Origin: Pseudobdellovibrionaceae bacterium
Lineage (GTDB): Bacteria > Bdellovibrionota > Bdellovibrionia > Bdellovibrionales > Bdellovibrionaceae
Direction of reading: 5' to 3'
DNA: 64,000 nucleotides
Assembly (NCBI GenBank): GCA_039810425.1
Contig: JBDHWW010000015.1
Coordinates: 1-64,000 of the forward strand
Under the pieces are notes generated by a model. The model saw nothing but the letters and a program-made list of their open reading frames with translations. It ran no database searches and had not been told where the DNA came from. Within the stretch, counting starts at the first letter, position 1. The number at the start of each line of letters is the position of its first letter. Below, piece after piece: positions 30,438-51,217 of the stretch. The position numbers and the translations under genes are program-made.

Positions 30438-30468
30438 GAGATCATTGAATATCGGGCCTTCAAAGAGA

Positions 30469-30557
30469 TCACCGCTTAGTCTTCAACGTGTTGAAGAGAT
30501 GACAGTGACAAAGATATTTAAAGTCGTTGTCTCGTTGAACGGAAGTTCACCGCTTAG
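30469..30557 (-). promoter_or_regulatory. Late-gene motif upstream of the portal
   Basis: TCACCGCTTAGTCTTCAAC 30469-30487, IR TCTTCAAC-gt-GTTGAAGA, second TCACCGCTTAG 30547-30557. Confidence 0.65.
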
Positions 30558-30657
30558 GACATTCAAAAATAGAATTATGGAGGATTCTCCGAGAGGATTT
30601 TGAAAGGGGTCCTTTTATAAAGACCCCAAGATCTGAGGTCTTTATATTCTTCAACTA

Positions 30658-31416
30658 TCACTTATTCTTTTTTGCCGCGTAGTTTCTCATGATGTCCTCG
30701 CAGGCTTTTAAGTCGTCAGCATTAAGTTGGAATGTCGATTTGCCATTGATCTGCTTTTCAATAAGTTCAAAAAGTTCAAAGTCGATAAATGGAGTGACCT
30801 TTCCTGATTGATATTCACGTTCTTTTTCTTCATAAAGGCCATCAAAGGTGCGGTCACGGAACCAGGACTGACGATTTTGCTCCTGAAGTTTCTGTTGTTT
30901 GTCTTTGCTTGGGTGACGCTCTAGGAACTCAAAGAACATTCCGCTGGCTTTCATTCCAGGAAAGAACCACTCGCCACTGAATACCTGAATCAAGTCTTCT
31001 TCAGCGTCATTTAAAATTGGGGTCACAAAGTTCACGCCCAAAGAAAGTGCGTGTTCGTGGAACGAAATCAGATCCGGTGTTCTGAGCGCAATATGTTGCC
31101 AATGGGCTGCGGCCTGATGCCCGTCGAGCATTTCTCTAACGTGGGATGGACGAGACTGCGGCTCCGAGGGTTGAACGACAGCCACAATTGTATTCATCAG
31201 CTCGCGCGGAGTTTCGTCAGCCTTTCCGATCATAAGGGCATAAGTCATGGATTTTTCGCCCTGACCTTTTTCCCACTCTTTGCGTTTATCATAGAGGATG
31301 TCCGCAGCTTGCACTCCGAACACCACGCGAAAAATCGCATAGGCCACCGAATATAGGCGCGGCTGAAGAAGGAGCGTCATGTGATCGACTTGAAAATTTA
31401 AGTATGGCTGTTTCAT
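30658..31416 (-). CDS. VOC-superfamily protein resembling the C-terminal domain of 4-hydroxyphenylpyruvate dioxygenase
   Basis: VDHMT, WQHIALRTPDL, LIQVFS, FFEFLER, FDGLYEEKERE (His-His-Glu triad). Confidence 0.7.
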   Translation of the reverse strand: MKQPYLNFQVDHMTLLLQPRLYSVAYAIFRVVFGVQAADILYDKRKEWEKGQGEKSMTYALMIGKADETPRELMNTIVAVVQPSEPQSRPSHVREMLDGHQAAAHWQHIALRTPDLISFHEHALSLGVNFVTPILNDAEEDLIQVFSGEWFFPGMKASGMFFEFLERHPSKDKQQKLQEQNRQSWFRDRTFDGLYEEKEREYQSGKVTPFIDFELFELIEKQINGKSTFQLNADDLKACEDIMRNYAAKKNK

Positions 31417-31664
31417 TTAGTTTCCTTTCAAAAACATAGTTATTTAAACCCGAAGATAAAATGTGGGTTTTTGGACCGAGCTACCTTATCACCGAGAGTG
31501 CCTTGAGTGAATACGAGGCGCGCCATCAAATCCCCCAAATTTCCGAGGGAAATCAGTAAGAAAGCCCAACGGATAGGCTGGCGAGTTTCGTTTCGAGTTG
31601 CCCAATTTTGCAATCTTTTTGCCTGATTTTGCTTTCACCAAAGGATTGACGCCGTTATCTCTTT

Positions 31665-31686
31665 ATAGTATAGGGTACTATACTAT
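31665..31686 (+). promoter_or_regulatory. CsoR/RcnR-type operator palindrome
   Basis: ATAGTATAG-ggta-CTATACTAT perfect 9-bp IR around a G tract, overlapping the start codon; TTGACG at 31646. Confidence 0.7.
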
Positions 31687-31957
31687 GCACACAATTAGAG
31701 ACAAGAAAAAAGTAATTACAAGAATAAAGCGAATCCAAGGGCAATTGTCGGCTCTCCAAAACTCTATCGAGGCCGAGGAAGATGATTGCTACAAAGTCAT
31801 GCAGCTTCTTGCTTCGTGCCGTGGCGCTCTAAATGGCCTCATGGGTGACATCGTAAATGGACACATCAAAGACCACATTGTCCTAGCTTCAAATAAGCAG
31901 GATGCGGCAGAGGCTGGAGACGAGCTGATCCAAGTCTTAGGTAGCTTTTTAAAATGA
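31685..31957 (+). CDS. rcnR: RcnR-like Ni/Co-responsive repressor (CsoR/RcnR family)
   Basis: MHTIRDK..., RIKRIQGQ; His2, Cys35, His60, His64 match the RcnR ligand pattern. Confidence 0.8.
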   Translation: MHTIRDKKKVITRIKRIQGQLSALQNSIEAEEDDCYKVMQLLASCRGALNGLMGDIVNGHIKDHIVLASNKQDAAEAGDELIQVLGSFLK

Positions 31958-32025
31958 AAAATACAGCGCACCCAAAACTGGGTTCAGATCAATAACGAAA
32001 GTCAGAAAACTTTAGAGGATTAAAT

Positions 32026-32337
32026 ATGGGGAACGACGAACAATCAAAACATGAACATCATCACACATCTGAAGCACTCACGCTTCTACGATTATCACTC
32101 AAGAATTTAGAAATGGCCGATGAAATGCTCGTTAATGGAAAGCCATGCGTTGAAGTTGTGAGACGGCTTTCCGGCGTCGTGTCGCTGCTGATTGAATGTA
32201 AAAGTTTGGTTGCAAACGATCACTTGCTGTCATGTGTGCAATCTGCTCTCAAGCCAGGTCAGGAATCGGTGATAAACGAACTCAAAATACTTGTTAGCGA
32301 GTTATCAACTTCAGCCAGCAAGGGTTCACACCATTGA
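32026..32337 (+). CDS. Divergent CsoR-family protein with His-rich N-terminus
   Basis: Cys41, His66, Cys70 fingerprint; lacks RxxRxxGQ. Confidence 0.6.
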   Translation: MGNDEQSKHEHHHTSEALTLLRLSLKNLEMADEMLVNGKPCVEVVRRLSGVVSLLIECKSLVANDHLLSCVQSALKPGQESVINELKILVSELSTSASKGSHH

Positions 32338-33677
32338 GCACGAAAACTTGGTCACTCTCTTCAAAGTTATTGATTGGACGACTTCTCACGAGATCTGGTG
32401 ATCAAGCTTGGGATTTTGCGGTTCCGTTAGCATTGTTAAGTCTTGTTCCCGGCGAGGTTCGAGTTGCAGCTCTTTACTATCTTATTGTTCGTCTGTTTTT
32501 AGTGGTGCTACTTCCGAGAATTACAGCTCTCATTGATGAAATGAATCGTTTGCGAGCAGCAAGACTAGGAATATCGTTGCAGTTCATTGGTGTTTTACTC
32601 GGAGCGATTGCATTTTTCGCTCTTAGTTACTTTAAATCGCAGTCATTGACTGTTTCCAGCCCGCAAATTATCGGAGCTTTTCTGGTGCTTCTCTTCGGAG
32701 GAGTGTTGAGCAGTTTCGGATCAAATTTCATGGATATCGCAATTGCAAACGATCTTGTTCCGTCAGGAATTAGCGAAGCTGAGTTGGCCGCATTCAACAG
32801 TCGCTTTAGACAAGTTGATCTTTTCACCGAGGTGGCGGCTCCAATTGCTGCGGGATTTCTTTTGGTGATGGGATCTTCTGATCTGCCAATGCTGGGATTT
32901 TACCTCGTTGCACTTTGGAATCTGATTTCATTTTTTCCAGAGTATGGAATTTTGACTTCGATATTTCACGAGCGTCCCGACTTGTCCGAGAAGCGTATTG
33001 CCGTCAGTAAGAGTGCGAAAGTTTCTTTCCTAGAAAAGCTCACCGGAGGATGGCGATCATTCTTTAGAGAACCTGTCGCCCTGGTCGTCGCCGCTTATGC
33101 AATTCTTTGGCTTTCTGTTTTAAGTCCGCATGGAGTTTTACTCACGGCCTTTCTAAAGGATGGCTGGAAATTGCCGGAGTGGGAGATCGGATTGTTTCGC
33201 GGATTGGGTGCTGTCTTTGGTTTAGCAGCTACCGTCATTTTCCCATTCGTTGAGAAAAAAATCGGTCTTATCCAAAGCTCAAAATCTTTCGTTATTTATC
33301 AGGCCATCACCGTTGCAATTGCCTTGGCCTTTTTCTTTTCCGATTCTCGAATGGGGCAGATTGGATTTCTGGCTTTTATATTGCTATCACGAATCGGTGT
33401 GTACGGATTCGGCTTAGGTGAAATGCAAATTCGTCAACTGGGGATTCGTCCGAGCGTTCGCGGAGAGGTAAACGGATTCGCAAGTGCTTTGACCGGCATT
33501 GCGACGCTCGGACTTTTTGCATCGGGCGTTCTCCTGCCTTCCACAAACGACTTTGTTTATCTCATCATCGCATCAGTCGTATTCGTGGTTTTGGCTGCAC
33601 TGGTTTTTAGCTTTTGGGCATGGCGAACGAAGGACAAAGCATTCTTGGGAGTGGAACATGAAGCGGCTCGTGGATAG
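32334..33677 (+). CDS. Bacterial ferroportin (SLC40/FPN1 family MFS divalent-metal exporter)
   Basis: GRLLTRSGDQAWDF, WNL.SF.PEY, LWLSVLSPHGVLL, EIGLFRGLGAVFG match my recollection of Bdellovibrio bacteriovorus Fpn. Confidence 0.9.
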   Translation: MSTKTWSLSSKLLIGRLLTRSGDQAWDFAVPLALLSLVPGEVRVAALYYLIVRLFLVVLLPRITALIDEMNRLRAARLGISLQFIGVLLGAIAFFALSYFKSQSLTVSSPQIIGAFLVLLFGGVLSSFGSNFMDIAIANDLVPSGISEAELAAFNSRFRQVDLFTEVAAPIAAGFLLVMGSSDLPMLGFYLVALWNLISFFPEYGILTSIFHERPDLSEKRIAVSKSAKVSFLEKLTGGWRSFFREPVALVVAAYAILWLSVLSPHGVLLTAFLKDGWKLPEWEIGLFRGLGAVFGLAATVIFPFVEKKIGLIQSSKSFVIYQAITVAIALAFFFSDSRMGQIGFLAFILLSRIGVYGFGLGEMQIRQLGIRPSVRGEVNGFASALTGIATLGLFASGVLLPSTNDFVYLIIASVVFVVLAALVFSFWAWRTKDKAFLGVEHEAARG

Positions 33678-33758: not shown

Positions 33759-34148
33759 GTGAAATTCTTGATAATTCTCACTTTTTTAACGATGCAGGTC
33801 ACTTCTGTGGGTGGCCTTGATTCTCTTTTTGGAGTCTATGCCTCTGCTTCGACAGAAGGACATCATCAACATCCTGCTGAGCTAAACGAACACGAAAGTG
33901 AAAGCACGGAACACGGTTCTACGGAGAACTACTCTCACGAACATACACACAGTCATGGACCTGGGGAGCCAGAACATTCTCACAGCCACCAGCACTCATT
34001 TCCAAATGCCCAACAATCGTTTTGCACGTTCCGCGATACCATTCTTCTTGAAATGGCTATCAGTACCTCGCTGAGCTTGTCTTCTGCTGAAGACCTTGAG
34101 CATCCAAGCCCTTATCTTGGATCTCTCTTCAGACCTCCAATTGTCTAA
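33759..34148 (+). CDS. His-rich secreted CzcI-like leader protein ending in FRPP
   Basis: Signal-like N-terminus, HxH repeats, C-term PSPYLGSLFRPPIV. Confidence 0.7.
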   Translation: MKFLIILTFLTMQVTSVGGLDSLFGVYASASTEGHHQHPAELNEHESESTEHGSTENYSHEHTHSHGPGEPEHSHSHQHSFPNAQQSFCTFRDTILLEMAISTSLSLSSAEDLEHPSPYLGSLFRPPIV

Positions 34149-34271
34149 AAAAACACGTCTTCAGATCGCGTTAGCTGGCCCAATTTTGCCATCATAGGCA
34201 CTGCTGCGTCCTAACGGCGTCACAACAAAATTCAAAATTAAAACAGCAGCACTTTGCTGCGAAAGGTATTT

Positions 34272-35522
34272 ATGTCGGCGAGACTACTTTTGTCTCTATG
34301 GCTAGGAATGCTTGGCGCGCCAGTATTTGCCCAGACGCAAACTCAAGCTTGCCAAGCTCTATCCAGCTATAAGGACGTTCTTCAGTGTGCTATTCAGAAT
34401 CATCCGAGCACTCAACGATCAAGACTGGTGCTCGACCAGAACCAAAATTTGACCGGCGTTGCGGAGCAAATCCCAAACCCTCAAATCAGCACCCAGATTC
34501 TGTCTGGCAAAACTAATAGCGACGAACGCGTTGATTACACGCAAGTCAATTTAGCACAGCCGTTCGAGTTAGGTGGCAAGCGCGGGTCTCGAATAAAAAA
34601 AGCGAAAGCATTGGTCGAAGTGAGCGAGATAGATCTTCAGCTTACTCAAGAGGAGATATATTTAAGGACGTATCTCTCCATGATTAGATTGCGACAGATC
34701 TCAGAAGAAATTGAGATTTACGACGACGCTTTGTCCACCTTCGAGAAAATTCAAAAACAGTATCGCTCACGCCCTCGCATGACTCCTGAACAACGTGCGA
34801 CGTATTCAGTTCTGGACATTGCAGCTAGTGACTATCGGGTGCGCCGACAGCCGCTTGTGCGCGAAGCGCGAGTTCATGAACGATTCCTTGAAATCGCAGT
34901 TGGACGAAGACTTGATGTTCGCAGAGACTTCTATCCCGCACGTCGCAAAGACTGGCCGAAAATTTCAGATGGAACTGAAGAAGCTAATTTGAAAAGTGCC
35001 GCGATCAGAAAATCTCAAGCAGAGGTTGAGGTCGCACTGGCCGAACTTGAGTCTGCAAAAAGCCTTGCTTGGCCGGACCTTCAAATCGGACCTACTTTTG
35101 AAACTCAGTCGCAAGGTAGTCAACGCTATCAACAACTAGGCGTTAATATCAGTTTCGCAATTCCCATTTTCAATCTCAACGGTGCAGGAAAATCATACGC
35201 AAATGCTGGCGTCTCGGTCGCAGAAGCTACTGCCACGGCTACAGTGCGGGAAGAACGCAACGAACTAAACCTAAATCGTCAGACCTATGAGGAAATTGTC
35301 CAGCTACTCAAATCCACAATTTCCGCATCTGACCTTCAACGCAAACACAGAGAAGTCGAATCGTCCTTTGCTAATGGCATTGTCCCGAGCTCACTCATCA
35401 TCGAAATTCATCGGCAATTGGCTGACTACACTCGAAGCGTAAATGAACAAGAAACATCAGCAATTGAAGCACTGGCAAAAATCTACTCAGTTCAGGGTCG
35501 CTTGCTTTCGGAGGGACTATGA
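34272..35522 (+). CDS. TolC-family outer membrane factor (CzcC-like)
   Basis: Signal peptide; PNP, QPFELGGKRGSR, PDL.IG, IPIFNLN motifs. Confidence 0.85.
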   Translation: MSARLLLSLWLGMLGAPVFAQTQTQACQALSSYKDVLQCAIQNHPSTQRSRLVLDQNQNLTGVAEQIPNPQISTQILSGKTNSDERVDYTQVNLAQPFELGGKRGSRIKKAKALVEVSEIDLQLTQEEIYLRTYLSMIRLRQISEEIEIYDDALSTFEKIQKQYRSRPRMTPEQRATYSVLDIAASDYRVRRQPLVREARVHERFLEIAVGRRLDVRRDFYPARRKDWPKISDGTEEANLKSAAIRKSQAEVEVALAELESAKSLAWPDLQIGPTFETQSQGSQRYQQLGVNISFAIPIFNLNGAGKSYANAGVSVAEATATATVREERNELNLNRQTYEEIVQLLKSTISASDLQRKHREVESSFANGIVPSSLIIEIHRQLADYTRSVNEQETSAIEALAKIYSVQGRLLSEGL

Positions 35523-35941
35523 GATTCAAAATCTATTTACTGCCGTTTTCTATTTTTATTGGCTTTAGCTTTTCCCACGCCCAGTCACCTGAAGGAGTCG
35601 AGGGTTTCAGAGCTGGTCCAGCTCTCGCAGTTCAAGAGGCCAATCTTAAAGACGGATTTAGACTCAGTGATAAAGCAAAAGAAGTCATTGGAGTGAAAAC
35701 AAAAAAACTCGGCACAAGACCATTCTCAATTTCGCAATCTTCAATTGTTCACTACGGCGATAAAGCAGGTGTTTACCGATACCGCGATGGCTGGTTCAAA
35801 CTTATTGAAGTTCAGATACAAAATAAATCTCAGGCTGTTGAAATCTCCAGCAGCGAACTTCGTGACAATGATGAAGTCGCAGTTCAAGGCGTCGCTCTCC
35901 TGCGGGTGAGTGAGATGGACGCTTTCGGGGGTGAAGAATGA
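35519..35941 (+). CDS. Miniature CzcB-like periplasmic adaptor (membrane-proximal part only)
   Basis: 140 aa at the czcB position; LS....IGVKT N-segment joined to V.I..VEI....L...DEV.VQG..LL C-segment. Confidence 0.6.
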   Translation: MRFKIYLLPFSIFIGFSFSHAQSPEGVEGFRAGPALAVQEANLKDGFRLSDKAKEVIGVKTKKLGTRPFSISQSSIVHYGDKAGVYRYRDGWFKLIEVQIQNKSQAVEISSSELRDNDEVAVQGVALLRVSEMDAFGGEE

Positions 35942-38900
35942 TAAGCCGAATCATAGCATTTTCAATTTATAATAGAATGGCCGTGCTTGCTATTACGGTG
36001 GGGATCGCTATTGCGGGTTGGATCACCTTTGAGAATTTGCCGATCGACGCAGTTCCAGACGTTACGAACAATCAAGTTCAAATCAACACCGAGGTCGATG
36101 GTCTTTCACCAGAAGAGACGGAAAAGAATGTCACCTTCGTGATCGAAACAGCCATGAGAGGGCTCGCTGGGGTCAATGAAGTGCGCTCACTCACGCGCTT
36201 CAATCTCTCGCAGGTTACAGTCATTTTTGAGGACGACGTTGACATATATCGAGCACGTCAGCTTGTAAGCGAACGCCTGCAATCTGTTTCCGGCTCTCTG
36301 CCGGCAGGCATTCGTCCTGAACCTGGCCCTATCAGTTCCGGCCTTGGTGAAATCGTTCACTATTCCGTTGAAGCGGAGAAAATTGAAAGCGGAGACAAAC
36401 GCCTTGAACAGTTGATGGAAATGCGAACGATCCAGGAATGGTATGTGAAGCCGAGACTTCTGACCGTGAAAGGTGTTGCGGAAGTAAATACCATCGGCGG
36501 ATTCGAGAAGCAGTTTCACATTCAGCCGGACACGCAAAAGATGGCGAGATACGGAGTTCAGTTCTCCGAGATTATAGATGCAATCGAGCGCACTAATAAA
36601 AATCTGGGCGGCGGATATGTTCAGCAAACCGGAGAACAGTTTCTCGTTCAGGCGGTCGGACTTCTTCAAGACATGGAGGACATCAAGTCAGTACCTTTAA
36701 AGTCTCTTGAAAACTTTAAAACAATCACCATCGGAGATGTCGCCAACGTCAGACTAGCGACTGAGCTTCGATCTGGTGCGGGACTTGTTCGAGCACGAGA
36801 AGCCGTAGTTGGCACCGTGATGATGCTCATGGGGGAAAACAGCCGAACAGTTGCTATTCGAGTAGCGGATCGCCTTAAGGAAGTTCAAGAGGGAATGCCA
36901 AAAGGTTATAAGATCGAGACCCTTTACATTCGCTCAGATCTTGTGAGTTCTACCATTGGAACAGTTGAGCATAACCTTTTAACGGGCGCATTTCTTGTCA
37001 TCGTGGTTCTTGCTCTGCTGATGGGTAACATCCGCGCTGCAATTATCACGGCAGTCACCATTCCACTTTCCCTTCTGATCTCATTTATCGCGATGAGATA
37101 TTTTAACATTTCAGGGAACTTGATGAGTCTCGGTGCCCTCGATTTCGGGATCATCGTTGACGGAACTGTTATCCTCTTGGATCACTGCGTTCGGGTTATT
37201 CAAGATCGTTCAACCGCGCTCAAGCGAACTCTCACAAAGGAAGAACTTCAGAAAGCCATTTACGATGCCACAGTTCACATTCGTACTGCGGCGGGATTCG
37301 GACAACTTATCATCGTTGTGGTTTTCCTACCTATTTTTTCACTTGTTGGCGTTGAAGGTAAAATGTTTCGGCCAATGGCTGCGACCTTCATTATCGCTAT
37401 TGTCGCGGCGCTAATTCTGTCCTTCACGACCGCACCAGCACTCGCAAGCATTTTGATGACAGGAAAAGTAGTCGATAAAGAACCTTGGCTGATGAGAAAG
37501 CTAGAGAAACTTTACGCTCCAGTCTTGGCGTTTGTTCTTCGGCACCGTCTTGCAACCGCAGGTGTCGGCCTTGCAGCCACTGTTTTAGGAGCAGTTCTTT
37601 TCATGCGCTTAGGGGGCGAGTTTCTTCCTCAGCTCGACGAAGGAACGCTTCTTGTTCAGACAACTCGTCCGGTGAATGTCAGCATTGATCAGTCAGTCGT
37701 GCTTCAGGCAAAAACCGAGGAAATAGCTTCAGATTTCCCCGAGGTCGCATTTACTTTCTCGAAAATCGGCACTTCTGAAATTGCAAATGATCCGATGGGC
37801 GTCAACCAAGCGGATACATACGTGATCTATAAGCCAGAGAAAGAGTGGCCGCTGATCGAGGGACGTAAGCGAACTCGCGCGGAAGTTGCCAATGCGATTA
37901 TCGAAAGACTTGATGCTGAATTACCAGGTCAATCGGTTCTCCGTAGTCAGCCGATTCAGATGCGCTTCAACGATCTTCTTGAAGGCTCCAAATCCGATGT
38001 TTCCGTGAAGCTTTACGGTGATGACATGGCAACGCTTTCGTCGATCACAAAACAAATTGCCGCAATTGTAGAGAAAATTGAAGGTGCGGGAGAAGTTGAA
38101 ACTGAGCTCCGCGGAACTTCACCTCTTTTGCGTGTGACGCCAAAGAAAGATGTTTTGCGGTCAATGGGCATTCCTACTCAATCCGTTCTACAGACAGTGG
38201 GTGTTGCACTTGGTGGCGCAGAAGCTGGAATGCTCTATCAGGGCGAACGACGATTTCCAATTTTTGTGCGCTTAAGTGAAGATCGACGATCTGATTTAGA
38301 TGCGATTCGTGGCCTTCCCGTGGGGTATGGAAACAATGCCACCGCACCTTTAAGCGAACTGGCCGACATTAAATTTGAAGAAGCCTACGGAACTATTGTC
38401 CGCGAAGATGGAAAACGTCGCGCAGCAGTTCTTATCAATCCTCACGGAAGAGACACTGAGAGTTTCGTCAATGAGGCGCGCGCCGCCGTGGAAGCCCAGA
38501 TTAAATTGCCTGAAGGCTATTACATCGAGTGGACCGGAACATTTAGGAATCTTCAGACGGCTAAGTCGCGTTTGATGCTCCTTGCACCGTTAGCACTGCT
38601 TCTGGTTCTTATGATGATCTACGCCGCATTTAAGAGCATCGGCGAGACGCTGCTTATCTTCGTTTGCGTACCGATGTCCTTGGTCGGTGGAGTTTTAGGA
38701 CTCATGCTGAATGGGCTTCCGTTCAGTATCACGGCGGGCGTTGGCTTCATTGCGCTTTCGGGAATCGCTGTTCTAAACGGCGTCGTTCTCGTGAACTACT
38801 TCAATGAGCTCCGAAAAGAAAATCTCGGCGCGCATGAAGTCGTGACTCGCGGTGCGCTTCTCCGACTGCGGCCTGTTTTGATGACGGCTCTGGTGGATAT

Positions 38901-39084: not shown

Positions 39085-39093
39085 GAGTAAAAA

Positions 39094-39852
39094 ATGAGAC
39101 AACTAATTTTCTTATTAACGACAATTCTAGCGAGTTCCAGCGCATGGGCGCATGGAATTTCAGCCGCAGATCGAGCCGCAATGCTTAGCGGTGGATATGG
39201 AAAGTATGTCTGGCTTGGAGCCAGTCACATGCTGACTGGTTACGATCACTTACTGTTTATTTTTGGGGTCATATTTTTTCTAACGTCTTTCAGAGACATT
39301 GTTAAATTCATCAGCGTGTTCACGTTCGGACACTGTATCACTTTGGTTTTTGCGACCTTCTTTAAGATCACCGCGAACTACTATCTGATTGATGCCGTTA
39401 TCGCACTCAGTGTGATGTACAAAGGTTTCGAGAATATCGACGGATTTAAAAAGTTCTTCGATTGGAAGGCTCCTAGTCTTTTGAAGATGGTCTTTTTCTT
39501 CGGTCTTATTCACGGTTTTGGTCTTTCGACAAGACTACAACAGCTCCCCCTGGGAGATGACAGTTTCCAGATGCTGTTTAGAATCCTCTCGTTCAACGTC
39601 GGAGTTGAGATCGGGCAAATCGTGGCTCTTACCGCAATGCTGATACTACTTAGCGGCTGGAGAAAAGCCGCTGCCTACATGAAGTTCGCAAAAGCTGCGA
39701 ATGTCGGGCTGATCGCCGGAGGAGTTTTTCTGTTCTTCATGCAGTTCCACGGATACTGGCATGGATCTGATCCAGATGCTTTTCCGTTGAATCGTGACGA
39801 TCACTCTCACGTCCATCAAGACATGCAACAAGAAGAAACGAACACTCATTAA
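39094..39852 (+). CDS. HupE/UreJ-family Ni-binding membrane protein
   Basis: AHG, HMLTGYDHLLF, FTFGHCITL, FGLIHGFG, FNVGVEIGQ. Confidence 0.88.
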   Translation: MRQLIFLLTTILASSSAWAHGISAADRAAMLSGGYGKYVWLGASHMLTGYDHLLFIFGVIFFLTSFRDIVKFISVFTFGHCITLVFATFFKITANYYLIDAVIALSVMYKGFENIDGFKKFFDWKAPSLLKMVFFFGLIHGFGLSTRLQQLPLGDDSFQMLFRILSFNVGVEIGQIVALTAMLILLSGWRKAAAYMKFAKAANVGLIAGGVFLFFMQFHGYWHGSDPDAFPLNRDDHSHVHQDMQQEETNTH

Positions 39853-42475: not shown

Positions 42476-44803
42476 TTAGAATTGATATTCAAAGCCAGCC
42501 CCTAAACTATCATTCGTCAGCATCAATCCGGCAGCCCATTCCCATTTCGGTGAATACATCAAAGAGAGCTCAAATTCCGTTTCGTGTTCGCCCCCTTGAT
42601 TGTCCGGTCGCCATGTAAACTCAAGCTCCGAAAACACCGTCTTCGTCCATTGAAATTCGCGCTCAATATCCAATCGAAATTTCCCATCATGATTCACTAA
42701 TAAATTCGTCTCGATCATCATCGGAAGAAAATGTCCGATACCAATTACGCCGTGAGTTTTTTCTCCGTAGGATGTTCCCCCCACGATGAGATTCGTCCAA
42801 TTATTAAACCAACGACGGTAAAAGACATCGCCTTCGTAGTCCCATTCATCCTTGAAGTTATAATCAAAGTTTTTGCCTTTGATATTTGCGCCTTCAATGC
42901 GAGCAGAAAACTCATTCCAGGCTTGAGAGATTCTGAAGTTTCCTTCCATGTGGTTAGAGGAAAGTTCCACGCGGCCGTAATTGAACCAAGGGTCCATGCG
43001 ATGATGATCGTGCTTATCGTGTTCGGCCATTTCGCCCTCTAACGCGAAATTTGAGTATTTAACGACTCTAGCCATACCTGTATCCATGTGGAAGAGGTTG
43101 TGGCAGTGGAGCATCCATTGTCCGACTTCATCAGTGTAAAACTCAATTGTGCGCGAACCCATTGGAGGTACGTCCACGGTATGTTTCCAAGGCGAATAAG
43201 TTCCGTTTTCATTGATGACGCGGAAGAAATGGCCGTGCAAGTGCATCGGATGGTGCATCATGCTGTCGTTCTGATAAGTGATGCGAACAATCTCTCCTGG
43301 ATTCACTGTAAGCAAGCGATCCTCGGAAATCGTTTTTCCATTGATGTGCCATACATAACGTCTCATATCACCGTTAAGAACAAGCTTAAGATCATGGACC
43401 TTCGCGTTTTTTGGGAAATTGATCGGCTCCAACGCCTTCAGTTTATCAACGCTCAATTGTTCGATGACCTTCCCTGATGCCATCGTCATTGGAGTGGCTT
43501 GAGCGCCTTTCATATCGTGACCAGAGTGATCTTCTTTTGCTGGGGTGGATTTCTTGGGCTTAGATTCAGAGTGGTCCATGCTTTTCATTTTCGAGTGATC
43601 CATCCCTTGCATTTTGCTATGGTCCATTTCGCCCATTTTGGAGTGATCCATCTCCTTCATTTTAGAATGGTCCATGTCTTTCATCTGACTATGATCCATG
43701 CCTTGCATCTTACTGTGATCCATACCGCTCATTTTCGAGTGGTCCATTCCACCCATCGCAGAGTGATCCATGCCGGACATATCGTGGTCCATCGTGGCGT
43801 AAAGATCTGGCTTAGGAACATCCTTTGCGAAAACCTTTTCACCCATACCGATGAACGTAGATGCGTAACCAGTTCCGTCTTGGCAGGTTGCGCGCAACTC
43901 GTAATTTTTATGCTCAGGCACCGTGAAAAGTACGTCGTAGGTTTCAGCCATGCCCATCAGAATTTCATTTGTCTGAATAGGTTCAATGTCTATTCCGTCC
44001 GAAGAAATGACCGTCATCGGCAATCCTCCTAACGAAACCTGGAAATAACTTGAAGCGGCCGCATTGATAATTCTGAGACGAATGCGCTGTCCTGGGTGCG
44101 CTTCCAAAAGTTGTGACACGGGTTTACCGTTAATCAAAAATGCGTCGTAGCCAACGTCTGAGAGGTCCATGCCCCCCATGCGTGTCCACTCGTTTTTGAA
44201 TTGGTTCATGAGCTTTCCTTCTTTGATGGCTTCAAAGTAGGATCGCATGGTGCCTTTTTTATAAAGATAGTAGTCGCCATCTTTTTTGAGATTGCGAAGA
44301 ATATGATCGGCGTTTTCATCCGACCAGTCGCTCAAAACAACGACGGCTTCTTTATCTACTTTTATCGTTTCTTTTTTTGGATGAATGACGATGGAACCAA
44401 AGACACCTTTTTGTTCCTGAAGCATCGTGTGAGAGTGATACCAGTAGGTTCCGTTCTGGCGAATTGGAAACTTAAACGTACGAGATTTTCCTGGATAGAT
44501 CGGCGGAGTGTTTACGAACGGAACTCCGTCCTCAAGCGGCGGCAAAAGAATGCCGTGCCAGTGGATTGAAACGTCTTCGTTGGAGTTTTTAAGCTCGTTT
44601 TTGACCGTGATTTCAGCATCATCTCCCTCAGTAAACTCTAACGTTGGCGCAGGAATCCCGCCGTTTACGGTGAGCGCAAAGTCCACGGTCTTTTTTCCAC
44701 TCATGTTGACGGGTTCATTTCTGATCGTCAGTTCATAGCGAACGGTCTTTGCGAAAGACGAAAGCGGGAGAATCATCAAAACAAATAACAACAAACTTTT
44801 CAT
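42476..44803 (-). CDS. Multicopper oxidase with Met/His-rich insert and C-terminal beta-barrel-like extension
   Basis: [25 protein letters not shown] copper motifs; ends GFEYQF. Confidence 0.92.
43568..43792 (-). repeat. Ten MDH(S)xMxx units (~24-nt period) inside the oxidase
   Basis: [23 protein letters not shown] ... MDHSE. Confidence 0.9.
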
Positions 44804-44811
44804 AAAATTTC

Positions 44812-45297
44812 CTATTCGAGTCTTTTCAAGATGGTTTTCATTTTCTCAATTTCGTCATGTTGTGCCTTGATAATATCGGCGCAAAGGCTTTTTAGCTCTG
44901 CGTCTTCAAGCTTACCTTCCTGACACATCAAGATCGCGCCTGAGTGGTGCGGGATCATAGAGCGGACAAACTGTTTATCCCCAACGAATGTCTGCTGACG
45001 GATGAAAATAAAAGACAGTACGAAAATCAAAATCGAAACGCCGGAGAGTGCAGCGTTTAGCTTTTTGTTTGGATACATTTCCTTCATCAGAAGAATCATT
45101 ATCACAACAGAAGGAGCGACCATCCAAAGCGTCATGTAGAGCGCATTAACGTTCATGAAAATGCTGCTGGCGGCATCAACCATCAGAAAGTTCATCCCGT
45201 ACATAAAAGCAAAATGCAGGATGGTCATCAGGGCGAGACCCGTATAGGGGTTTAAGCCTTTGTGCTGTTGATGCGAATTGTGATTGCCGTGTTTCAT
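44812..45297 (-). CDS. DUF305-family (CopM-like) membrane protein
   Basis: [15 protein letters not shown]...L...II.AQ..EI..M. Confidence 0.85.
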
Positions 45298-45321: not shown

Positions 45322-45714
45322 TTATTTTTTCTTCGTAAAGTCCTCTAAAATGGGGCACGTCGGTCTATCATCGCCATGACAGTGAAGCGCAAGATCCACT
45401 AAAGTATTTCTGATGGATTGAAGGGCTTGGATCTTGTCTTCTAATTCTTTTACATGAGCCAGAGTCAACGCCTTCACGTCCGAACTCTTTCTTGAGCGGT
45501 TGCGCCAGAGACTCAGAAGCTTCTTAATATCTTTCATGGAAAAGCCTAAAGTTCTAGCGCGTTTCACAAAACACAAGGTGTGAACGTCGCTCTCGCTGTA
45601 CGTTCGATAGCCGGATTCTGAACGGCTGGCTTTGGGGATGATTCCAATAGATTCGTAGTGACGAATCAACTTTGCATTTACTCCTGAGGCTTTCGCGGCT
45701 TGACCTATATTCAT
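45322..45714 (-). CDS. cueR: CueR, copy 2 (heads the oxidase operon)
   Basis: Close paralog of 41458-41859; CHGDDRPTCPIL. Confidence 0.92.
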   Translation of the reverse strand: MNIGQAAKASGVNAKLIRHYESIGIIPKASRSESGYRTYSESDVHTLCFVKRARTLGFSMKDIKKLLSLWRNRSRKSSDVKALTLAHVKELEDKIQALQSIRNTLVDLALHCHGDDRPTCPILEDFTKKK

Positions 45715-45720
45715 GATTCC

Positions 45721-45751
45721 AGCGTAATCCTTCCAATAGTTGGAAGGTCAA
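45721..45751 (-). promoter_or_regulatory. CueR-type promoter of cueR2 (leaderless)
   Basis: TTGACC-19-TACGCT, dyad CCTTCCAA-N3-TTGGAAGG, 6 nt to ATG. Confidence 0.78.
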
Positions 45752-45831
45752 GAGGGCTCTGCATGAACATGGCGCAACATATTGAAACAGCGCGTAAATT
45801 CTCGGAAGATTACAATTCTTTGGATAGTCTA

Positions 45832-45862
45832 TTGACCTTCCAATGCTTGGAAGGTGCAGAAT
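45832..45862 (+). promoter_or_regulatory. CueR-type promoter of copA
   Basis: TTGACC-19-CAGAAT; ACCTTCCAA-tgc-TTGGAAGGT perfect dyad. Confidence 0.85.
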
Positions 45863-45901
45863 GAACTCAGATTAAGGACATTTGCATTCAAGGAGCAGTA
45901 T

Positions 45902-48718
45902 ATGACACACGACAATCACCACAATCATCAGGGGCATGACCACGGCGAACATGGCTGCTGTGGTGTTCACAACTCAAAAGCAGAAACCAAAAAAGTGACC
46001 GACCCCGTTTGCGGAATGCAAATTGATCCCGCAACCGCTAAGGGTGGCAAAAGCAATTTTCAAGGCAACGACTATTTCTTCTGCAATCCTAAATGCAAAG
46101 CGAAGTTTGATGAGAATCCCTTCGCGTATATTCACGGCGGAAAAGATAGCTGTCACGCACCGAGCGCCACTGAAAACAAAGCCCATGCAGAACATGGTGG
46201 CGGCTGCTGCGCCCCAAAAGCAAAGGCGCAAGCCGAAGATCAGCTTGTGACTGATCCCGTGTGCGGAATGAAGATCAATCCTCAAACTGCCAAGGGCGGC
46301 AAAAGCACCGTTGACGGAAAAGATTATTTTTTCTGTAACCCCAAGTGCAAAACGAAATTCGACGCCGACCCTCAATCCTACATTCAAAAATCATCAACCG
46401 TGATTGATCCGGTTTGCGGAATGAAAGTAGATCCAAATAACGCCAAAGGGGGCAAGAGCACCTTTGATGGCAAGGATTATTTCTTCTGCAACCCGAAATG
46501 TAAAACCAAGTTCGATGCGGACCCTCACGCGTATCTCCACAAGAAAAGCGAAGCACCCAAGGCCGATGCCAGCGATAAACGAATGTACACTTGCCCAATG
46601 GACCCCGAAGTCAGGCAAGTAGGCCCTGGGACCTGTCCGAAATGCGGCATGGCTCTTGAGCCTGAAGAAATCTCTTTGGATGAAGGTGAAAATCCTGAAC
46701 TCACGGACTTTAAAAAACGTTTGAAAGTGAGCGCGTTCTTAGCGATTCCGCTTCTGCTTTTTGCGATGTCGGACATTATCCCTGGGCAACCTGTTCAGAT
46801 GAGTCTTCCGCATTGGATCTATGCTGGGATTCAGCTTCTTCTTGCGACCCCTGTCGTTCTTTGGGCAGGCTATCCGTTCTTTCATCGTGGCTGGTATTCA
46901 ATTAAAACTTGGAACCTGAATATGTTCACGCTGATTGCAATTGGGACCGGCGTTGCTTACGCGTTCAGTGTCGTTGCAACTTTTTTCCCTTCAATCATTC
47001 CTGAAAGCATGATCGCGCACGGCGGACAAGTGCCTCTGTACTTTGAAGCGGCCGCCACGATCACGGCCCTGGTTCTCCTAGGCCAAGTCCTTGAGCTCCG
47101 CGCAAGAAGCCAAACCGGAAACGCAATCAAAGCCCTTCTAGGACTTGCCGCGAAAACTGCGCGAAGAATCAGACCGGATGGAACCGAAGAGGATGTTTCA
47201 ATTGATGACATTCGCCCAGGCGACCTCCTGCGCGTTCGCCCTGGTGAAAAAGTTCCGACCGATGGCGAAGTCACTGATGGAAGATCCGTCATTGATGAGT
47301 CGATGATTTCAGGCGAGCCGATCCCAGTTGAAAAAGAAGTTGGCGATAAAGTTACGGGAGCGACCGTGAACACCACAGGCTCTTTCGTGATGAAGGCAAC
47401 CAAAGTGGGATCTGACACTCTTCTTTCGCAGATCGTAAAGATGGTTTCACAAGCCCAAAGAAGTCGCGCGCCGATTCAGAAGCTGGCTGACACCGTGTCT
47501 TCGTACTTTGTTCCAATTGTGGTCCTCATTGCCGTTGCAACGGCTGTGGTGTGGTATCTAGTCGGACCAGATCCGAAGCTCACTCATGCCATGATTAACG
47601 CGGTTGCGGTTCTTATCATTGCGTGTCCGTGTGCCCTGGGTCTTGCAACTCCAATGGCTATCATGGTGGGAACTGGTAAAGGTGCCACTCACGGGGTTTT
47701 GATTAAAAACGCCGAAGCCTTAGAGCGCATGGAGAAAATCACAACTCTCGTCGTCGATAAAACTGGAACCCTGACACTTGGAAAACCAAAACTCTCAGAA
47801 GTGAAAGTGCTTGGCGGATTTAACGAAGCTGAAGTGCTTTCGCTTGCAGCTTCACTTGAAAATTCGAGTGAACATCCACTCGCTGAAGCCATTGTGTCCG
47901 GCGCAAGAGAGCGCGGCGCTCAGATTTTGAATGTTGCGGATTTCTCTTCTGTCACCGGAATGGGCGTGAAAGGAACAATTTCAGGCCGAACCGTTCTTAT
48001 CGGTAACAAACGCCTAATGGAAGAAAATCGCATCTCTGCAAACGAACTTTCTCAGATTGCGCAAGACCTTCAAATGAAAGGTCACGGAGCGATGCTTGTG
48101 GCAATCGACGGAAAAGCTGCGGGAGTGATTACGGTCAAAGATCCAATCAAAGAATCCTCTAAACCTGCGATTCAATACTTTCACGAGCAAGGCATCGAAG
48201 TTGTGATGCTCACTGGTGACAACAAAAACACCGCAAGCGTCGTGGCAAAAGAGCTTGGAATCGACAGAGTGGAAGCCGATGTGCTTCCTCATCAAAAAGG
48301 TGAAATTGTTAAGAAGCTTCAACAAAGCGGCAAGCGCGTGGCGATGGCCGGAGACGGAATCAATGACGCCCCAGCACTCGCGCAAGCTGACATCGGGATT
48401 GCAATGGGCACCGGAACTGACGTTGCGATTGAAAGCGCCGGAGTGACTTTGGTGAAAGGCGACCTGTCTGGAATTGTGCGCGCTCACAAACTGAGCCAAG
48501 CCACGATGAAAAACATCAGACAGAACCTTTTCTTCGCTTTCGGCTATAACACCCTCGGCGTTCCTGTCGCTGCCGGAGTGCTCTATCCAGTCTTTGGTCT
48601 CTTGCTGAGTCCAATGATCGCAAGTATAGCTATGAGTTTGAGCTCCGTCTCTGTTATCGGGAACTCACTCAGACTTAGATCCGCAAAAATTGATAACGAA
48701 GAAAAATTTAAGGTTTAA
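45902..48718 (+). CDS. copA: Cu(I)-exporting P1B-ATPase with His-rich N-terminus, three YHS domains and a YTCPM domain
   Basis: AAGGAG before ATG 45902; [22 protein letters not shown], MxxSS. Confidence 0.95.
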
Positions 48719-48727
48719 AGTTTTACT

Positions 48728-49753
48728 ATGGCTAACAATCACAATCACGAAAATCACAAAGGGCACAATCATAAGCACGATCACAAAGGCCATGAAGGAC
48801 ACGACCACGGTCACAAAGATCACAAGGGACACGATCACGGTGATGACCATGACCATTCGCACGTTCCGGCTGTCACCGAGGGAAATGAAAAGAAGATTTT
48901 AATTTCATTCATCCTTATTTTAGGTTTCATGGTCGTTGAAGCCGTGGGCGGCTACATTTCGGGATCTCTCGCGCTCTTGGCCGATGCGGGTCACATGATG
49001 ACTGATGCTGCGGCTCTAGGTTTGGCTTACATGGCTTTTCGTTTTGGTCGGCGCGCAAGTGACCAACGCCGCACTTTTGGTTATCTTCGATTTGAAGTCA
49101 TCGCGGGTCTTATAAACGCAATCACACTCTTTGCGATTGTGGGATGGATTCTCTTTGAGGCCTATGAGCGATTCCACAGTCCACAACCTGTTTTAGCGGG
49201 TTCAATGTTCCTCGTTGCTATCGGTGGATTGCTCGTGAATATCTTTGTTCTTTGGTTCCTTACTCGTGGTGATACAGATCACGTCAATGTGAAGGGTGCG
49301 ATCCTTCATGTGATGGGAGACCTTCTGGGCTCAGTGGGAGCAGTGATCGCCGCCGTTGTGATTTGGTACACAGGCTGGACACCTATTGATCCAATTCTCT
49401 CGGTTCTTGTTTCGCTTCTGGTTCTTAACAGTGCGTGGAGCCTTTTCAAAAGCACACTTCACATCCTGCTTGAAGGCGCTCCTCCTGACATGACTGCATC
49501 TGACGTTGAAACTCATTTGCTTAAAAGTGTTGAGGGCTTAAATAAAGTCAGTCACGTCCACGTTTGGTTAATCACGTCAGGTCGAACTCTAGCAACTTTA
49601 CAGATTCAACCAAAACCTGACGCTGACGTTCCGACGGTGGCAAAACAAGTTGAACATGAATTAAGAGAAAGATTCAAAATTGAACACGCCACCGTTGGAG
49701 TGGACTGGGATGGTGTTGCCATTTGCAGTTTAGAAAAACCAAAATCTAAATGA
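48728..49753 (+). CDS. Cation diffusion facilitator (CzcD/ZitB-like) with His-rich N-terminus
   Basis: SLALLADAGHMMTD, LHVMGDLLGS, HVHVW. Confidence 0.92.
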   Translation: MANNHNHENHKGHNHKHDHKGHEGHDHGHKDHKGHDHGDDHDHSHVPAVTEGNEKKILISFILILGFMVVEAVGGYISGSLALLADAGHMMTDAAALGLAYMAFRFGRRASDQRRTFGYLRFEVIAGLINAITLFAIVGWILFEAYERFHSPQPVLAGSMFLVAIGGLLVNIFVLWFLTRGDTDHVNVKGAILHVMGDLLGSVGAVIAAVVIWYTGWTPIDPILSVLVSLLVLNSAWSLFKSTLHILLEGAPPDMTASDVETHLLKSVEGLNKVSHVHVWLITSGRTLATLQIQPKPDADVPTVAKQVEHELRERFKIEHATVGVDWDGVAICSLEKPKSK

Positions 49754-49759
49754 CGTGTT

Positions 49760-51061
49760 CTACTTTTTTCTTCTCTCAGAGTCAGCTAACACTCGCTTTA
49801 CACTGACCCTGATTTGCACAAGCGAAAGAATGATCCGACTATTCTTTCGCTTGTGAACTCTCTGCGCGTGATAAATTCCTCGGTGGCCCGATACGGCGTA
49901 ACTCACAAAGCAAGCAACCAAAGCATAGATTCCAATTTGCGGCCCGAAAAGTTCAAGTGCCATGATCGTGCAAGCTAGTGGCGTGTTGGCTGCTCCCGCG
50001 AACACGGCGACAAACCCCATCACAGCTAGGATCGGCAACGGAATTGGCAGAAATCCACTCAAAGCATTTCCGAGAGCTGCCCCGATGAATAGAAGCGGAG
50101 TCACTTCGCCGCCTTTAAAGCCCACTCCCAAAGTGAATGCCGTGAAAGTTAGTTTTCCAATCCAGTCATAGGCCGGAAGCGGAGCTTTGAGGGCATCAAC
50201 AATGATCGAAACTCCAAGCCCCGCGTAGCGAGTCGTGAGAGGAACCAAAAAGAAAACGAGTGAAATAAACGCGCCCCCAATGAGTGCTCTTATTGGCAGA
50301 TACGGAAAAATCTTTTTAAAGCTCGCTTTGATTTGTTCCGTCATCAGTGCAAACAGTTTTGCAGTTAGGCCGAAAAGCACCCCTGCGAAAGTCACGGATG
50401 CCCAGAACACGAACGAGTTTGGAATTTCTAAAGTCGGATGAACGTAACTTGTATGATGAACGCCTAGAAGTTGCGTCACATAGTGCGCGGTGAAAGCTGC
50501 GGTGGCACATTCAACAAGCGCCCAGAGGTGAAGCTTTCCGATCGCCAGCACTTCTAGTCCAAAAATAGTTCCAGCAAACGGAACACCGAAAACCGAGCCG
50601 AAGCCTCCGGCCATTCCTGCCATGAGAAGTGTGCGCCGATCTTCGGGAGTCATTTTAAAAATGCGTGTGAACTGATCGGCAATCGAGCCACCCATTTGCA
50701 CGGCAGTACCTTCGCGTCCTGCCGATCCGCCGAAGAGATGCGTCGCTAAAGTTCCGAATAACACAAGCGGAGCCATACGAAACGGCACCACATTTTTTAG
50801 ATCATGAAATTCATCTATGATGAGATTATTTCCGGCCTCAACGGACTTTCCCCAGTAGTGATAAGCACCCCCCACGATAAGGCCACCCAGTGGAAGAAGA
50901 AAAAGCAGCCATGAGTGCGCTTCCCGAAACTCCGTCGTCAGTTCAAGAGTCCGCAAGAAAATGGTCGAGGCAACGCCGCAACCGACGCCGATCAAGCTTG
51001 AGAGAAAAATCCACTTAACGTAATGCTGGAAAATTGATTGAAGGGTTTTTGGTTTCTTCAA
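49760..51061 (-). CDS. CLC-F fluoride/proton antiporter (EriC-type)
   Basis: CLC-F signatures GNNLI, GREGT, GEVTP; TTG start behind a fluoride riboswitch. Confidence 0.92.
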   Translation of the reverse strand: MKKPKTLQSIFQHYVKWIFLSSLIGVGCGVASTIFLRTLELTTEFREAHSWLLFLLPLGGLIVGGAYHYWGKSVEAGNNLIIDEFHDLKNVVPFRMAPLVLFGTLATHLFGGSAGREGTAVQMGGSIADQFTRIFKMTPEDRRTLLMAGMAGGFGSVFGVPFAGTIFGLEVLAIGKLHLWALVECATAAFTAHYVTQLLGVHHTSYVHPTLEIPNSFVFWASVTFAGVLFGLTAKLFALMTEQIKASFKKIFPYLPIRALIGGAFISLVFFLVPLTTRYAGLGVSIIVDALKAPLPAYDWIGKLTFTAFTLGVGFKGGEVTPLLFIGAALGNALSGFLPIPLPILAVMGFVAVFAGAANTPLACTIMALELFGPQIGIYALVACFVSYAVSGHRGIYHAQRVHKRKNSRIILSLVQIRVSVKRVLADSERRKK

Positions 51062-51066
51062 GATAC

Positions 51067-51143
51067 ACTCCTACCTTTGATTGGTAGGAGTCATTAGCGC
51101 GATCTCTAAATTGAGCGGCGGTTCAAGGCAGACTCCATTGCCT
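51067..51143 (-). ncRNA. Fluoride riboswitch (crcB motif) with SD-sequestering hairpin
   Basis: GGCAAUGGAGUCUGCC-UUGAACCGC...GCUAAUGACUCCUAC; ACUCCUACC pairs with downstream GGUAGGAGU (SD); promoter TTGATT-17-TATTCT upstream. Confidence 0.93.
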
Positions 51144-51217
51144 GAACTTAAGAATAGATGGATGGCACTCGTAAATCAAGCCTGATGCTTCCCAGCAGCC
51201 CCGAATCAAGTCAGAGG

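Follow-up and report, generated by a model that had tools for sequence, protein, structure and literature searches.

The DNA analyzed here, referred to as the window, is the first 64,000 bases of the 69,367-base contig C15 from a Pseudobdellovibrionaceae bacterium. In the window, the genes for the large terminase subunit (terL) and the portal protein of a temperate phage are separated by 20,780 bp (30438-51217) that encode metal and fluoride resistance. Comparison with relatives suggests that in this sub-lineage the short terL-portal spacer serves as a hypervariable cargo bay, which here holds 20.8 kb of self-regulated resistance operons. We consider this reading very likely as a whole, and it includes three propositions: the window carries a single temperate myovirus-type prophage of about 65 kb in total, one end of which is at or close to window base 1; the bay is bounded on one side by the terL stop codon and on the other by a conserved element approximately 50-70 nucleotides (nt) upstream of portal; and the content of the bay is replaced much faster than the phage core diverges. 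Below, G000 is the window's own genome, other G-numbers and the L-numbers are relative loci, records or genomes, and X-numbers are sequencing runs.

Both flanking genes are complete. The product of terL (51218..52666, minus strand) has 482 amino acids (aa) and matches PHROG 38 (E 6e-107) and Terminase_6C, while that of portal (29109..30437, minus strand) has 442 aa and matches PF06381 (E 2.5e-69) and PHROG 146. Profile cover and full-length alignment to relatives agree that neither is shortened, which bears out an earlier note, made from the sequence by a model, that had called both intact. A small terminase-like protein (DUF5681, PF18932; 52653..53090, minus strand) precedes terL and is 52-54% aa identical to the product of the gene in the same position in L021, L040 and L041. 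The flanks of the insert are conserved core genes, as expected of an accessory hotspot: terL is 85-88% aa identical in L021, L040 and L041, and portal is 71-74% identical in L021, L030, L031 and L032. Nucleotide homology with L021, L040 and L041 ends at 51218/51219, which is the stop codon of terL; on the other side, it restarts at 30490 (L030) and 30426 (L021). The probable walls of the bay are placed at these positions.

The gene content between these walls varies. Among the six useful relative contigs obtained from IMG/VR and a metagenome collection, L021 (terL 85% and portal 72% in the locus tables; 87% and 73% over the tblastn alignment) has terL and portal on one 8.6-kb contig, separated by 2,090 nt with a DUF4238 protein and a D-2-hydroxyacid dehydrogenase. 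The bay of L040 (terL 87%) starts with these same two genes, followed by a fluoride riboswitch and a CLC gene, and then by: DUF190, pyrophosphatase, MFS transporter, DsrE, ArsC-type phosphatase, aquaglyceroporin (MIP), MerR, DoxX, chromate transporter and TauE. In L041 (terL 88%), the cargo encodes a ParB-like nuclease, a two-component system, PepSY, an outer-membrane factor, a 170-aa open reading frame (ORF), an RND pump, carbonic anhydrase and a phosphoesterase. On the opposite side, the contig of L030 (portal 71%) ends with a CsoR/RcnR-family gene that immediately precedes portal. All four close-clade members (terL 85-88% aa), the window included, therefore carry foreign genes after terL, over 2.1, >10, >10 and 20.8 kb, each filling being different, and L030 adds a fifth gene before portal. 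Very close kin illustrate this: L021 shares 92.4% nt identity with L040 as far as L021:4264 and, after 96 unique bases, 92.9% with L030 from L021:4361 onwards. These loci therefore differ essentially in their bay content.

The fillings do not share a history with the phage that carries them. The riboswitch-linked CLC proteins of the window and L040 are 48% aa identical, against 87% for terL, and the cargo was therefore not inherited with the phage; the same function was loaded twice. The CsoR/RcnR-family gene of L030 is only 24% identical to that of the window. Common cargo ancestry between the window and its relatives, considered as a candidate, is rejected on these two values. Replacement of the bay content is thus probably much faster than divergence of the phage core.

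More distant relatives have a closed bay. In six of six distant loci with a portal detectable by tblastn, terL and portal are 46-240 nt apart, and in six further distant loci the first large ORF after terL is portal by PHROGs, 20-166 nt past the terL match. All 12 loci with an identifiable portal are thus closed (L020, L048 and L103 are not scorable), and the open bay is therefore a derived trait of the sub-lineage. These comparisons agree with the earlier note that terL and portal are usually adjacent, and they support its proposal of a built-in cargo slot: the variation it had suggested looking for at this junction is found, with different foreign DNA in every close relative visible.

The lineage is sparsely represented. 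No isolate has a terL above 39% or a portal above 32% identity, and the best isolate match of terL is that of Aeromonas phage 56 (37% aa). Against 100 relative genomes, terL reaches 47% at best (G007 and G052), with no portal homologue nearby, and in a search of genome contigs no match exceeds 43%. A portal search of 383 other genomes of the order yielded a single match, of 39%, and a search of 400 genomes of the phylum yielded none at E 1e-60. IMG/VR searches with the terL and portal alignments yielded no additional close relative.

One possibility would be that the insert is a separate mobile element, such as a transposon, an integrative element or an integron-like array, that targets the terL-portal spacer. 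This would account for the repeated use of one precise site in several phages. However, the insert has neither a recombinase of its own nor terminal repeats. None of its 19 ORFs matches a transposase or recombinase in Pfam, NCBIfam, PHROG or PADLOC, and the largest gap between ORFs is 399 nt. A repeat search over 29000-53000 finds no direct or inverted repeats at the two boundaries, the longest repeat pair spanning most of the insert being 17 nt and located inside genes. Likewise, no tRNA gene occurs in the insert or elsewhere on C15 or on the adjoining contig C36. The ends of the inserts in the window, L040 and L041 have no sequence in common, and their first cargo genes differ (CLC, DUF4238 and ParB-like nuclease, respectively). 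The earlier remark that no transposase, integrase or flanking repeat is visible is thereby confirmed by four libraries and the boundary repeat search, and we regard an autonomous element as highly improbable.

A second concern is that the junctions could be an artefact: either a chimeric contig, or two prophage remnants or copies split by host chromosome. The concern is reasonable given that the cargo resembles the chromosome of the host's family and that IMG/VR classes two relatives as proviruses with a called boundary or contig end at portal. The assembly comprises 149 contigs; the size of the smallest, 2,500 nt, points to a genome derived from a metagenome. Logan contigs of four runs were compared over 29800-49799, and the portal-cargo junction (30438-30657) is bridged by contigs of runs X1, X2 and X8, which belong to three studies. 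The bridging contigs measure 30,893 nt in X1 and 23,388 nt in X2, the latter reaching 45028 with six differing letters, and a 44,310-nt contig of X2 extends from 44999 past the 49799 end of the compared stretch. Sequencing depth is equal on phage arm and cargo (16.5/15.6/16.3 in X1; 45/44.9 in X2), with no joints. Run X15 has depth in 30 of 30 bins, with no piece crossing the portal junction among those listed. The compared runs differ from the window by 0-7 letters per 20 kb. For the opposite junction, the stretch 46500-56499, which spans it, is present at 0.90-1.00 of sampled words in 13 runs from 8 studies; these derive from activated sludge, bioreactor, biofilm and unspecified metagenomes, and one of them may be the assembly source. 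RNA runs X17-X20 contain small shares of the sampled words.

The cargo insert is real and not a product of misassembly. Two collapsed prophage copies, another candidate, are ruled out by the equal depth on phage arm and cargo. In L021, terL and portal of this lineage lie 2.1 kb apart in the same order on one contig, and L040 and L041, from other assemblies, also pass from terL straight into host-like genes. In addition, the prophage end of G384 is the recombinase-proximal end and not the terL-portal spacer. Misassembled junctions and phage halves from different elements, which the earlier note had named as its possible undoing, are both contradicted, and an artefact of either kind is essentially implausible.

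As a separate observation, three stretches in X1 (30911-30945, 31373-31406 and 47660-47694) form separate unitigs at twice the surrounding depth, and 30911 is also the branch point of a 2,737-nt contig. The 30-mers of these stretches are single-copy in G000, and another community sequence therefore shares them.

The insert is densely coded, its 19 ORFs covering 92.4% of the sequence, and 13 of the 19 are antisense to the phage late genes. The first cargo element after terL is a fluoride riboswitch aptamer (RF01734; 51078..51151, minus strand), which matches the full model (1-64) with 48 bits against a gathering threshold of 34 (E 6.4e-10). It starts 66 nt past the terL stop and ends 16 nt before the start of a CLC gene (49760..51061, minus strand; PF00654, E 7.6e-68), such that transcripts exiting terL would meet the riboswitch directly. 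A 9-bp hairpin 3' of the riboswitch holds the sequence AGGAG ahead of the TTG start of the CLC gene, and it may have a regulatory function. The location of a crcB-motif aptamer directly upstream of a CLC gene is the arrangement expected for CLC-F, and the product, of CLC-F type by context, is predicted to be a fluoride exporter.

Next along the insert, a copper/zinc module (45322..49753) comprises: CueR (45322-45714, minus strand; TIGR02044, 175 bits); a divergently oriented Cu-type P1B ATPase with YHS/HMBD domains (45854-48718, plus strand; TIGR01511, 613 bits); and a ZitB-like CDF protein (48728-49753, plus strand; TIGR01297, 285 bits). MerR-type palindromes lie at 45725-45757 and 45832-45864. 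A second copper module (41458..45297) contains another CueR (41458-41859, minus strand; 77% aa identical to the first), an unknown ORF of 144 aa (41924-42358, plus strand), a CopA-type multicopper oxidase with MDHSKM-type Met/His-rich repeats (42476-44803, minus strand) and a CopM-like DUF305 protein (44812-45297, minus strand). Within the oxidase gene, at least eight tandem 24-nt units (43548-43795, minus strand) encode these repeats, of the MDHSKMxx type when translated by eye. An AraC-family regulator follows (40631..41455, plus strand; HTH_18/HTH_AraC). It is 35% aa identical to the product of an AraC-family gene in the right arm of the phage (59217-60080, plus strand); this right-arm gene is also present upstream of terL in L040 and L041.

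The HME-RND module (33759..40231, plus strand) encodes a CopL-like His-rich ORF, OEP, a 140-aa ORF, CzcA/CusA, HupE/UreJ and DUF6488. The pump (TIGR00914, 1190 bits against a cutoff of 701) and the outer-membrane factor (PF02321, OEP) expected of an HME-RND system are both present. The module has no canonical membrane-fusion protein of 350-450 aa; the 140-aa ORF, which has no family match, stands in its place. The layout with a 140-aa ORF at the adaptor position (34254-40231, plus strand) is retained in G014, G003 and G046 and in a second copy on contig C28 of G000, and the RND operon of L041 (14903-19776) has its 170-aa ORF at this position. Beyond the module lie an RcnR-like repressor, a CsoR-like repressor and a ferroportin-family exporter (31598..33677, plus strand; PF02583 twice and PF06963, E 2e-62), the match of the RcnR-like repressor to NF011613 being below the cutoff. 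The last cargo gene before portal encodes a VOC/glyoxalase-like protein (30658..31416, minus strand) with weak Pfam glyoxalase matches (E 0.02-0.04). This protein is not a recombinase. In a protein atlas it falls in unnamed and VOC-type clusters in which Bdellovibrionota are commonest, and a paralogue (62% aa) is encoded on contig C16.

Metal specificities are read here from family names, and the fluoride call additionally from the riboswitch. On this basis, the Ni/Co, Cu, Zn/Cd and fluoride labels given previously are reasonable, RF01734 confirming that for fluoride. The regulators within the cargo, which are RcnR/CsoR, two CueR with MerR-type palindromes, AraC and the fluoride riboswitch, are consistent with a set of separate transcription units that would be self-regulated.

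The likely source of these operons is close at hand. The G+C content of the cargo, 46.6%, is below that of the phage arms (48.7-48.9%) and the whole genome (49.0%). Cargo DNA is matched in 83 of the 101 genomes searched, G000 included, and the best matches, 72-73% nt identity over 4-4.5 kb, are in G014 (same family) and G003 (same genus). The order OEP, small ORF, CzcA, HupE, DUF6488 is retained in both, with the ferroportin gene adjoining in G003, and CzcA is 87% identical at the protein level in G014 and 85% in G003. CueR-ATPase pairs (67-74% aa) are found in the chromosomes of several relatives. Within the window's own genome, paralogues outside the bay are more distant: 60% for CzcA, 42% for the ATPase, 34% for the CLC protein and only 25-33% for CueR-type matches. 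No other copy of the multicopper oxidase, the CopM-like protein, the ferroportin or HupE was found in G000 by tblastn (E 1e-5, half-length cover). The cargo thus looks like chromosome blocks from bacteria of the host's family and not from distant donors.

The late genes beyond the insert may have an upstream element of their own. The region upstream of portal, which forms the right wall (30438..30657, minus strand), contains: a hairpin after the VOC gene; a partial motif copy at 30547-30557; a palindrome, TCTTCAACACGTTGAAGA; and the motif GTTGAAGACTAAGCGGTGA at 30469-30487, approximately 32 nt before the portal start. A second copy, GTTGAAAATGAAGCGGTGA (28153..28171, minus strand), lies 40 nt before the protease/scaffold gene and is likewise preceded by TTCAAC/GTTGAA-type palindromes. 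The motif pattern has two matches, compared with 0.02 expected. It recurs before portal in L021 and, with one change, in L030, and before the protease gene in L021, L031 and L032. The portal's own copy of a late motif, which the earlier note had described, is therefore shared with the protease upstream region and conserved in relatives, and it may be a late promoter or an activator site.

These features allow a mechanism to be proposed for the hypervariable bay. Illegitimate recombination would bring pieces of host chromosome into the only part of the late operon that tolerates insertions, this tolerance arising if expression of portal and the head genes relies on an upstream element of their own, independent of read-through from terL. 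Related prophages could then swap whole cassettes by homologous recombination via the conserved terL and portal flanks. The lysogen, in turn, would express the cargo on demand, apart from the phage cycle and to the benefit of the host.

Whether the element still moves as a phage depends in part on its size. The provirus record G384 (33,173 nt) matches window 14-30437 gene by gene and in the same order, from portal through recombinase, and full-length collinear matches to G384 and G385, together with PHROGs, indicate complete packaging, head, tail and lysis modules. No structural gene compared has a frameshift or stop. CheckV completeness values for four relatives' records (33173/0.74, 23303/0.53, 12701/0.28 and 8617/0.19) yield full lengths of 44.0-45.4 kb. 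The phage arms here sum to approximately 44.4 kb if the right end lies at about 65.2 kb of C15, where the phage-like genes are succeeded by a HEPN/nucleotidyltransferase pair and an ECF sigma factor. Addition of the cargo brings the prophage to about 65 kb, approximately 145% of the expected length for the lineage, the insert adding ~47%. Capsids of ~45-kb phages are not known to take 65 kb. This copy most likely exceeds one headful and would be unable to travel as a complete genome in one particle.

The recombinase also differs from that of the relative. The serine recombinase gene (14..934, minus strand; Resolvase and Recombinase domains) encodes 306 aa and appears cut short, compared with 540 aa in G384. 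Identity is 77% over residues 8-267, homology ends at window position ~69, and the stop lies 13 nt from the first base of the contig. The first 68 nt of the contig have no match elsewhere in the genome or in any fetched locus, and the break may be either a real truncation or an assembly break. A search for attachment-site (att) repeats found none. The earlier description of an apparently intact prophage thus stands for the structural module, which is complete and collinear with a relative, and is to be qualified for the recombinase, which reads short. Based on size and the truncated reading of this gene, we lean towards reduced or lost autonomy of this copy.

Carried further, these data could indicate a prophage that is locked in and heading to domestication: too large for its capsid, damaged in its integrase and retained for its resistance genes. 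The ~65 kb found against ~44-45 kb expected, the end of recombinase homology at ~69 with an early stop after it, the uniform depth without joints, and the four cargo genes (multicopper oxidase, CopM-like, ferroportin and HupE) with no second copy in the genome under the tblastn thresholds above are all consistent with this proposal. Set against it, the structural genes compared show no frameshift or stop, and the recombinase break is 68 nt away from the end of a contig, in an assembly of metagenome type, where it may be an assembly or strain artefact. Decay also leaves unexplained why relatives gained cargo at exactly the same site. We give domestication of this copy slightly less than even weight.

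Alternatively, the oversized prophage may still work as a phage and spread its cargo, either in a 65-kb capsid or as partial, permuted genomes that rebuild the prophage after multiple infection. P22 provides a precedent, in the form of an oversized genome carrying a tetracycline-resistance element. Packaging would reach the cargo early, as it lies just past the terminase genes. In support of continued function, the structural, lysis and terminase ORFs are all of full length and share their order with a relative, several studies include runs with near-identical copies, and the presence of >10 kb of cargo at the same site in three diverged clade members is easier to explain if laden phages persist and move. 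The isolates nearest in terL (37% aa, the Aeromonas phage 56 group) have, in the available text of their description, circularly permuted and terminally redundant genomes, i.e. they are headful packagers (PMC3391216). This proposal has to contend with a recombinase of 306 rather than 540 aa, and with equal depth on phage arm and cargo, no excision joint and no sign of induction in the runs compared. The spread across studies may also reflect one widespread host strain (0-7 differing letters per 20 kb), and neither the 383 other genomes of the order nor the 400 of the phylum yielded a close relative. A working phage is thus possible but doubtful. A broader extension would be a myovirus lineage whose insulated bay repeatedly loads 10-20 kb host toxic-ion islands (metals, fluoride, arsenic, chromate), and whose oversized members shed cargo-enriched particles, shuttling islands at high frequency among wastewater bacteria, probably Bdellovibrionota. 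This is speculative and improbable on present data.

Several points weigh against a hypervariable, insulated bay in an oversized prophage. The capture mechanism leaves no visible trace in the sequence, and three clade members with >10 kb of cargo are odd if large cargo quickly kills the phage. Scans for sigma-70 promoters and intrinsic terminators at both junctions return counts within the shuffled range, and neither the hairpin after the last cargo gene (z -1.0) nor the pre-portal palindrome folds better than shuffles. The sample of relatives is small, five showing either side of the bay, and the inserts of L040 and L041 are known as >10 kb without portal, their far wall lying beyond 10 kb. 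For the junctions, direct bridging by contigs covers the portal side, support at terL being indirect, and X1, X2 and X8 are each flagged as a possible assembly source, so that at most two of the three are independent. Finally, the right end of the prophage (~65.2 kb of C15) is placed by gene content, and the size limit derives from CheckV estimates and general knowledge of capsids. The anatomy of the insert, its real junctions, the variability of the site and the host-family origin of the cargo are observed, and the capture route, the promoter role of the motif, expression of the cargo and the packaging limit are proposed.

Read along the minus strand, the gene order of the window starts with replication genes, including a DnaC-like gene (62742-63608), followed by an AbiE pair, a methyltransferase, a resolvase, a ParB-like protein, a 7-deazaguanine cluster (53149-56256), the small terminase-like gene and terL. 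Beyond the cargo lie portal, a Mu F-like protein, the protease/scaffold gene, the major capsid protein, neck, sheath, tube, tape measure, baseplate and fibres. Head, neck, contractile tail, baseplate, fibre and lysis genes together occupy 8357..29108 (minus strand), identified by PHROGs and endolysin domains and collinear gene by gene with G384. The distal part contains endolysin (8357-9049), a cI-like repressor on the opposite strand (4792-5460), a YqaJ-type exonuclease and the serine recombinase (14-934).

Several of these genes merit separate mention. The cluster at 53149-56256 (minus strand), directly upstream of the small terminase gene, encodes FolE, QueE, QueD, QueC and a DpdA-like homologue of tRNA-guanine transglycosylase and is a 7-deazaguanine DNA-modification cluster. 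L021, L040 and L041 have an N6/N4 DNA methylase at this position instead, and it looks like a second swap site, for DNA-modification modules. Among the tail-fibre genes, 10634-12982 (minus strand) encodes a family-9 glycosyltransferase (heptosyltransferase type) and an RCC1-repeat protein; both are retained in G384 and G385 (52% and 27-35%, respectively). The AbiEii/AbiEi toxin-antitoxin pair of the early region lies at 61132-62645 (minus strand), and the nucleotidyltransferase/HEPN pair at C15 65230-65968 (plus strand) is just beyond the presumed prophage end.

A circular contig or phage-plasmid was rejected as a candidate: C15 has no terminal self-overlap, and its right end overlaps the start of C36 by 77 nt. 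Elsewhere in the assembly, the start of C40 (1-600) and the end of C37 (last 600 nt) each hold a C-terminal large-serine-recombinase fragment overlapping a tRNA-Leu gene, and C36 (3266-4966) encodes a tyrosine integrase beside an 18-nt tRNA-Leu-like fragment. The C40 and C37 fragments, the C15-C36 overlap and the C36 integrase suggest that the prophage lies within a tandem array of integrated elements.

The usual view is that phages carry little resistance cargo. A lineage with such a bay is a concrete system for studying how a headful phage tolerates foreign DNA and how cargo enters a late operon and leaves it unbroken. It also bears on whether phages move resistance to metals and fluoride through engineered water systems, a setting in which runs from several studies contain near-identical copies of the element. 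In practical terms, prophage callers split such elements at the host-like insert, as with the two relatives recorded as proviruses ending at or in portal, and an annotated "host region between two phage fragments" can be one prophage.

Accessory loci of this general kind have been described. P2-like hotspots (old/tin and Z/fun) resemble the bay in having a fixed site between core genes that holds differing accessory genes, as far as the available text of the sources describes them (10.1101/2024.10.15.618418; PMC9122126), and one P2 hotspot likewise borders portal (10.1101/2024.10.15.618418). P2 hotspots hold mainly anti-phage defence, whereas the bay holds toxic-ion resistance and has no PADLOC defence match. 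The bay also lies inside the packaging/head operon, between terL and portal, and adds ~47% to the genome. The morons of lambdoid phages, in the summary of the same survey, are also autonomously regulated accessory units between late genes that are useful to the lysogen (10.1101/2024.10.15.618418). The size of 1-3 genes that the earlier note had given as usual for morons is too narrow, as phage hotspot surveys report, in the text available, islands >20 kb (10.1101/2024.10.15.618418). Compared with classical morons, which have one to few genes with a promoter and a terminator, the bay comprises at least six modules with a total of 19 genes, of which 13 run antisense to the late operon.

The phage itself can be compared with the phiPLPE-like dwarf myoviruses (Aeromonas phage 56, Bdellovibrio phage phi1422 and others). 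From the accessible description of that group, the contractile tail, the order terminase-portal-head-tail-baseplate-fibres and genomes of 43.5-48.5 kb, close to the ~44-kb core of the prophage, are shared (PMC3391216); in those phages, however, terL and portal lie in one conserved block. The prophage is outside the group in the strict sense: portal is at most 32% identical to that of any isolate, no named group member is among the 15 best matches listed, and only terL (37%) points there.

With respect to mobility, the closest parallels are oversized headful P22 with a resistance element and lateral transduction, which share a temperate, headful-type phage, a genome that with its cargo exceeds one headful, and cargo by the packaging genes. 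They differ in that the P22 cargo is a transposon and that the prophage described here is known from its genes alone. Chromosomal metal-resistance islands of the host's family share operons and their order with the cargo: OEP, small ORF, CzcA, HupE and DUF6488; CueR and P1B ATPase; and multicopper oxidase and CopM. In the window these operons are inside a prophage, whereas searches of the relatives that carry them found no terL or portal of this lineage.

A literature search at the level of titles and abstracts found no cargo site between terL and portal and no metal island in a prophage late operon, which is not proof that none has been published. A hypervariable accessory locus between conserved phage genes thus appears, from the available text of work on P2 hotspots and of hotspot surveys, to be a known kind of locus (10.1101/2024.10.15.618418). 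What is unusual here is its position between terL and portal, its filling with whole toxic-ion islands instead of defence genes, and a load that amounts to nearly half the genome again.

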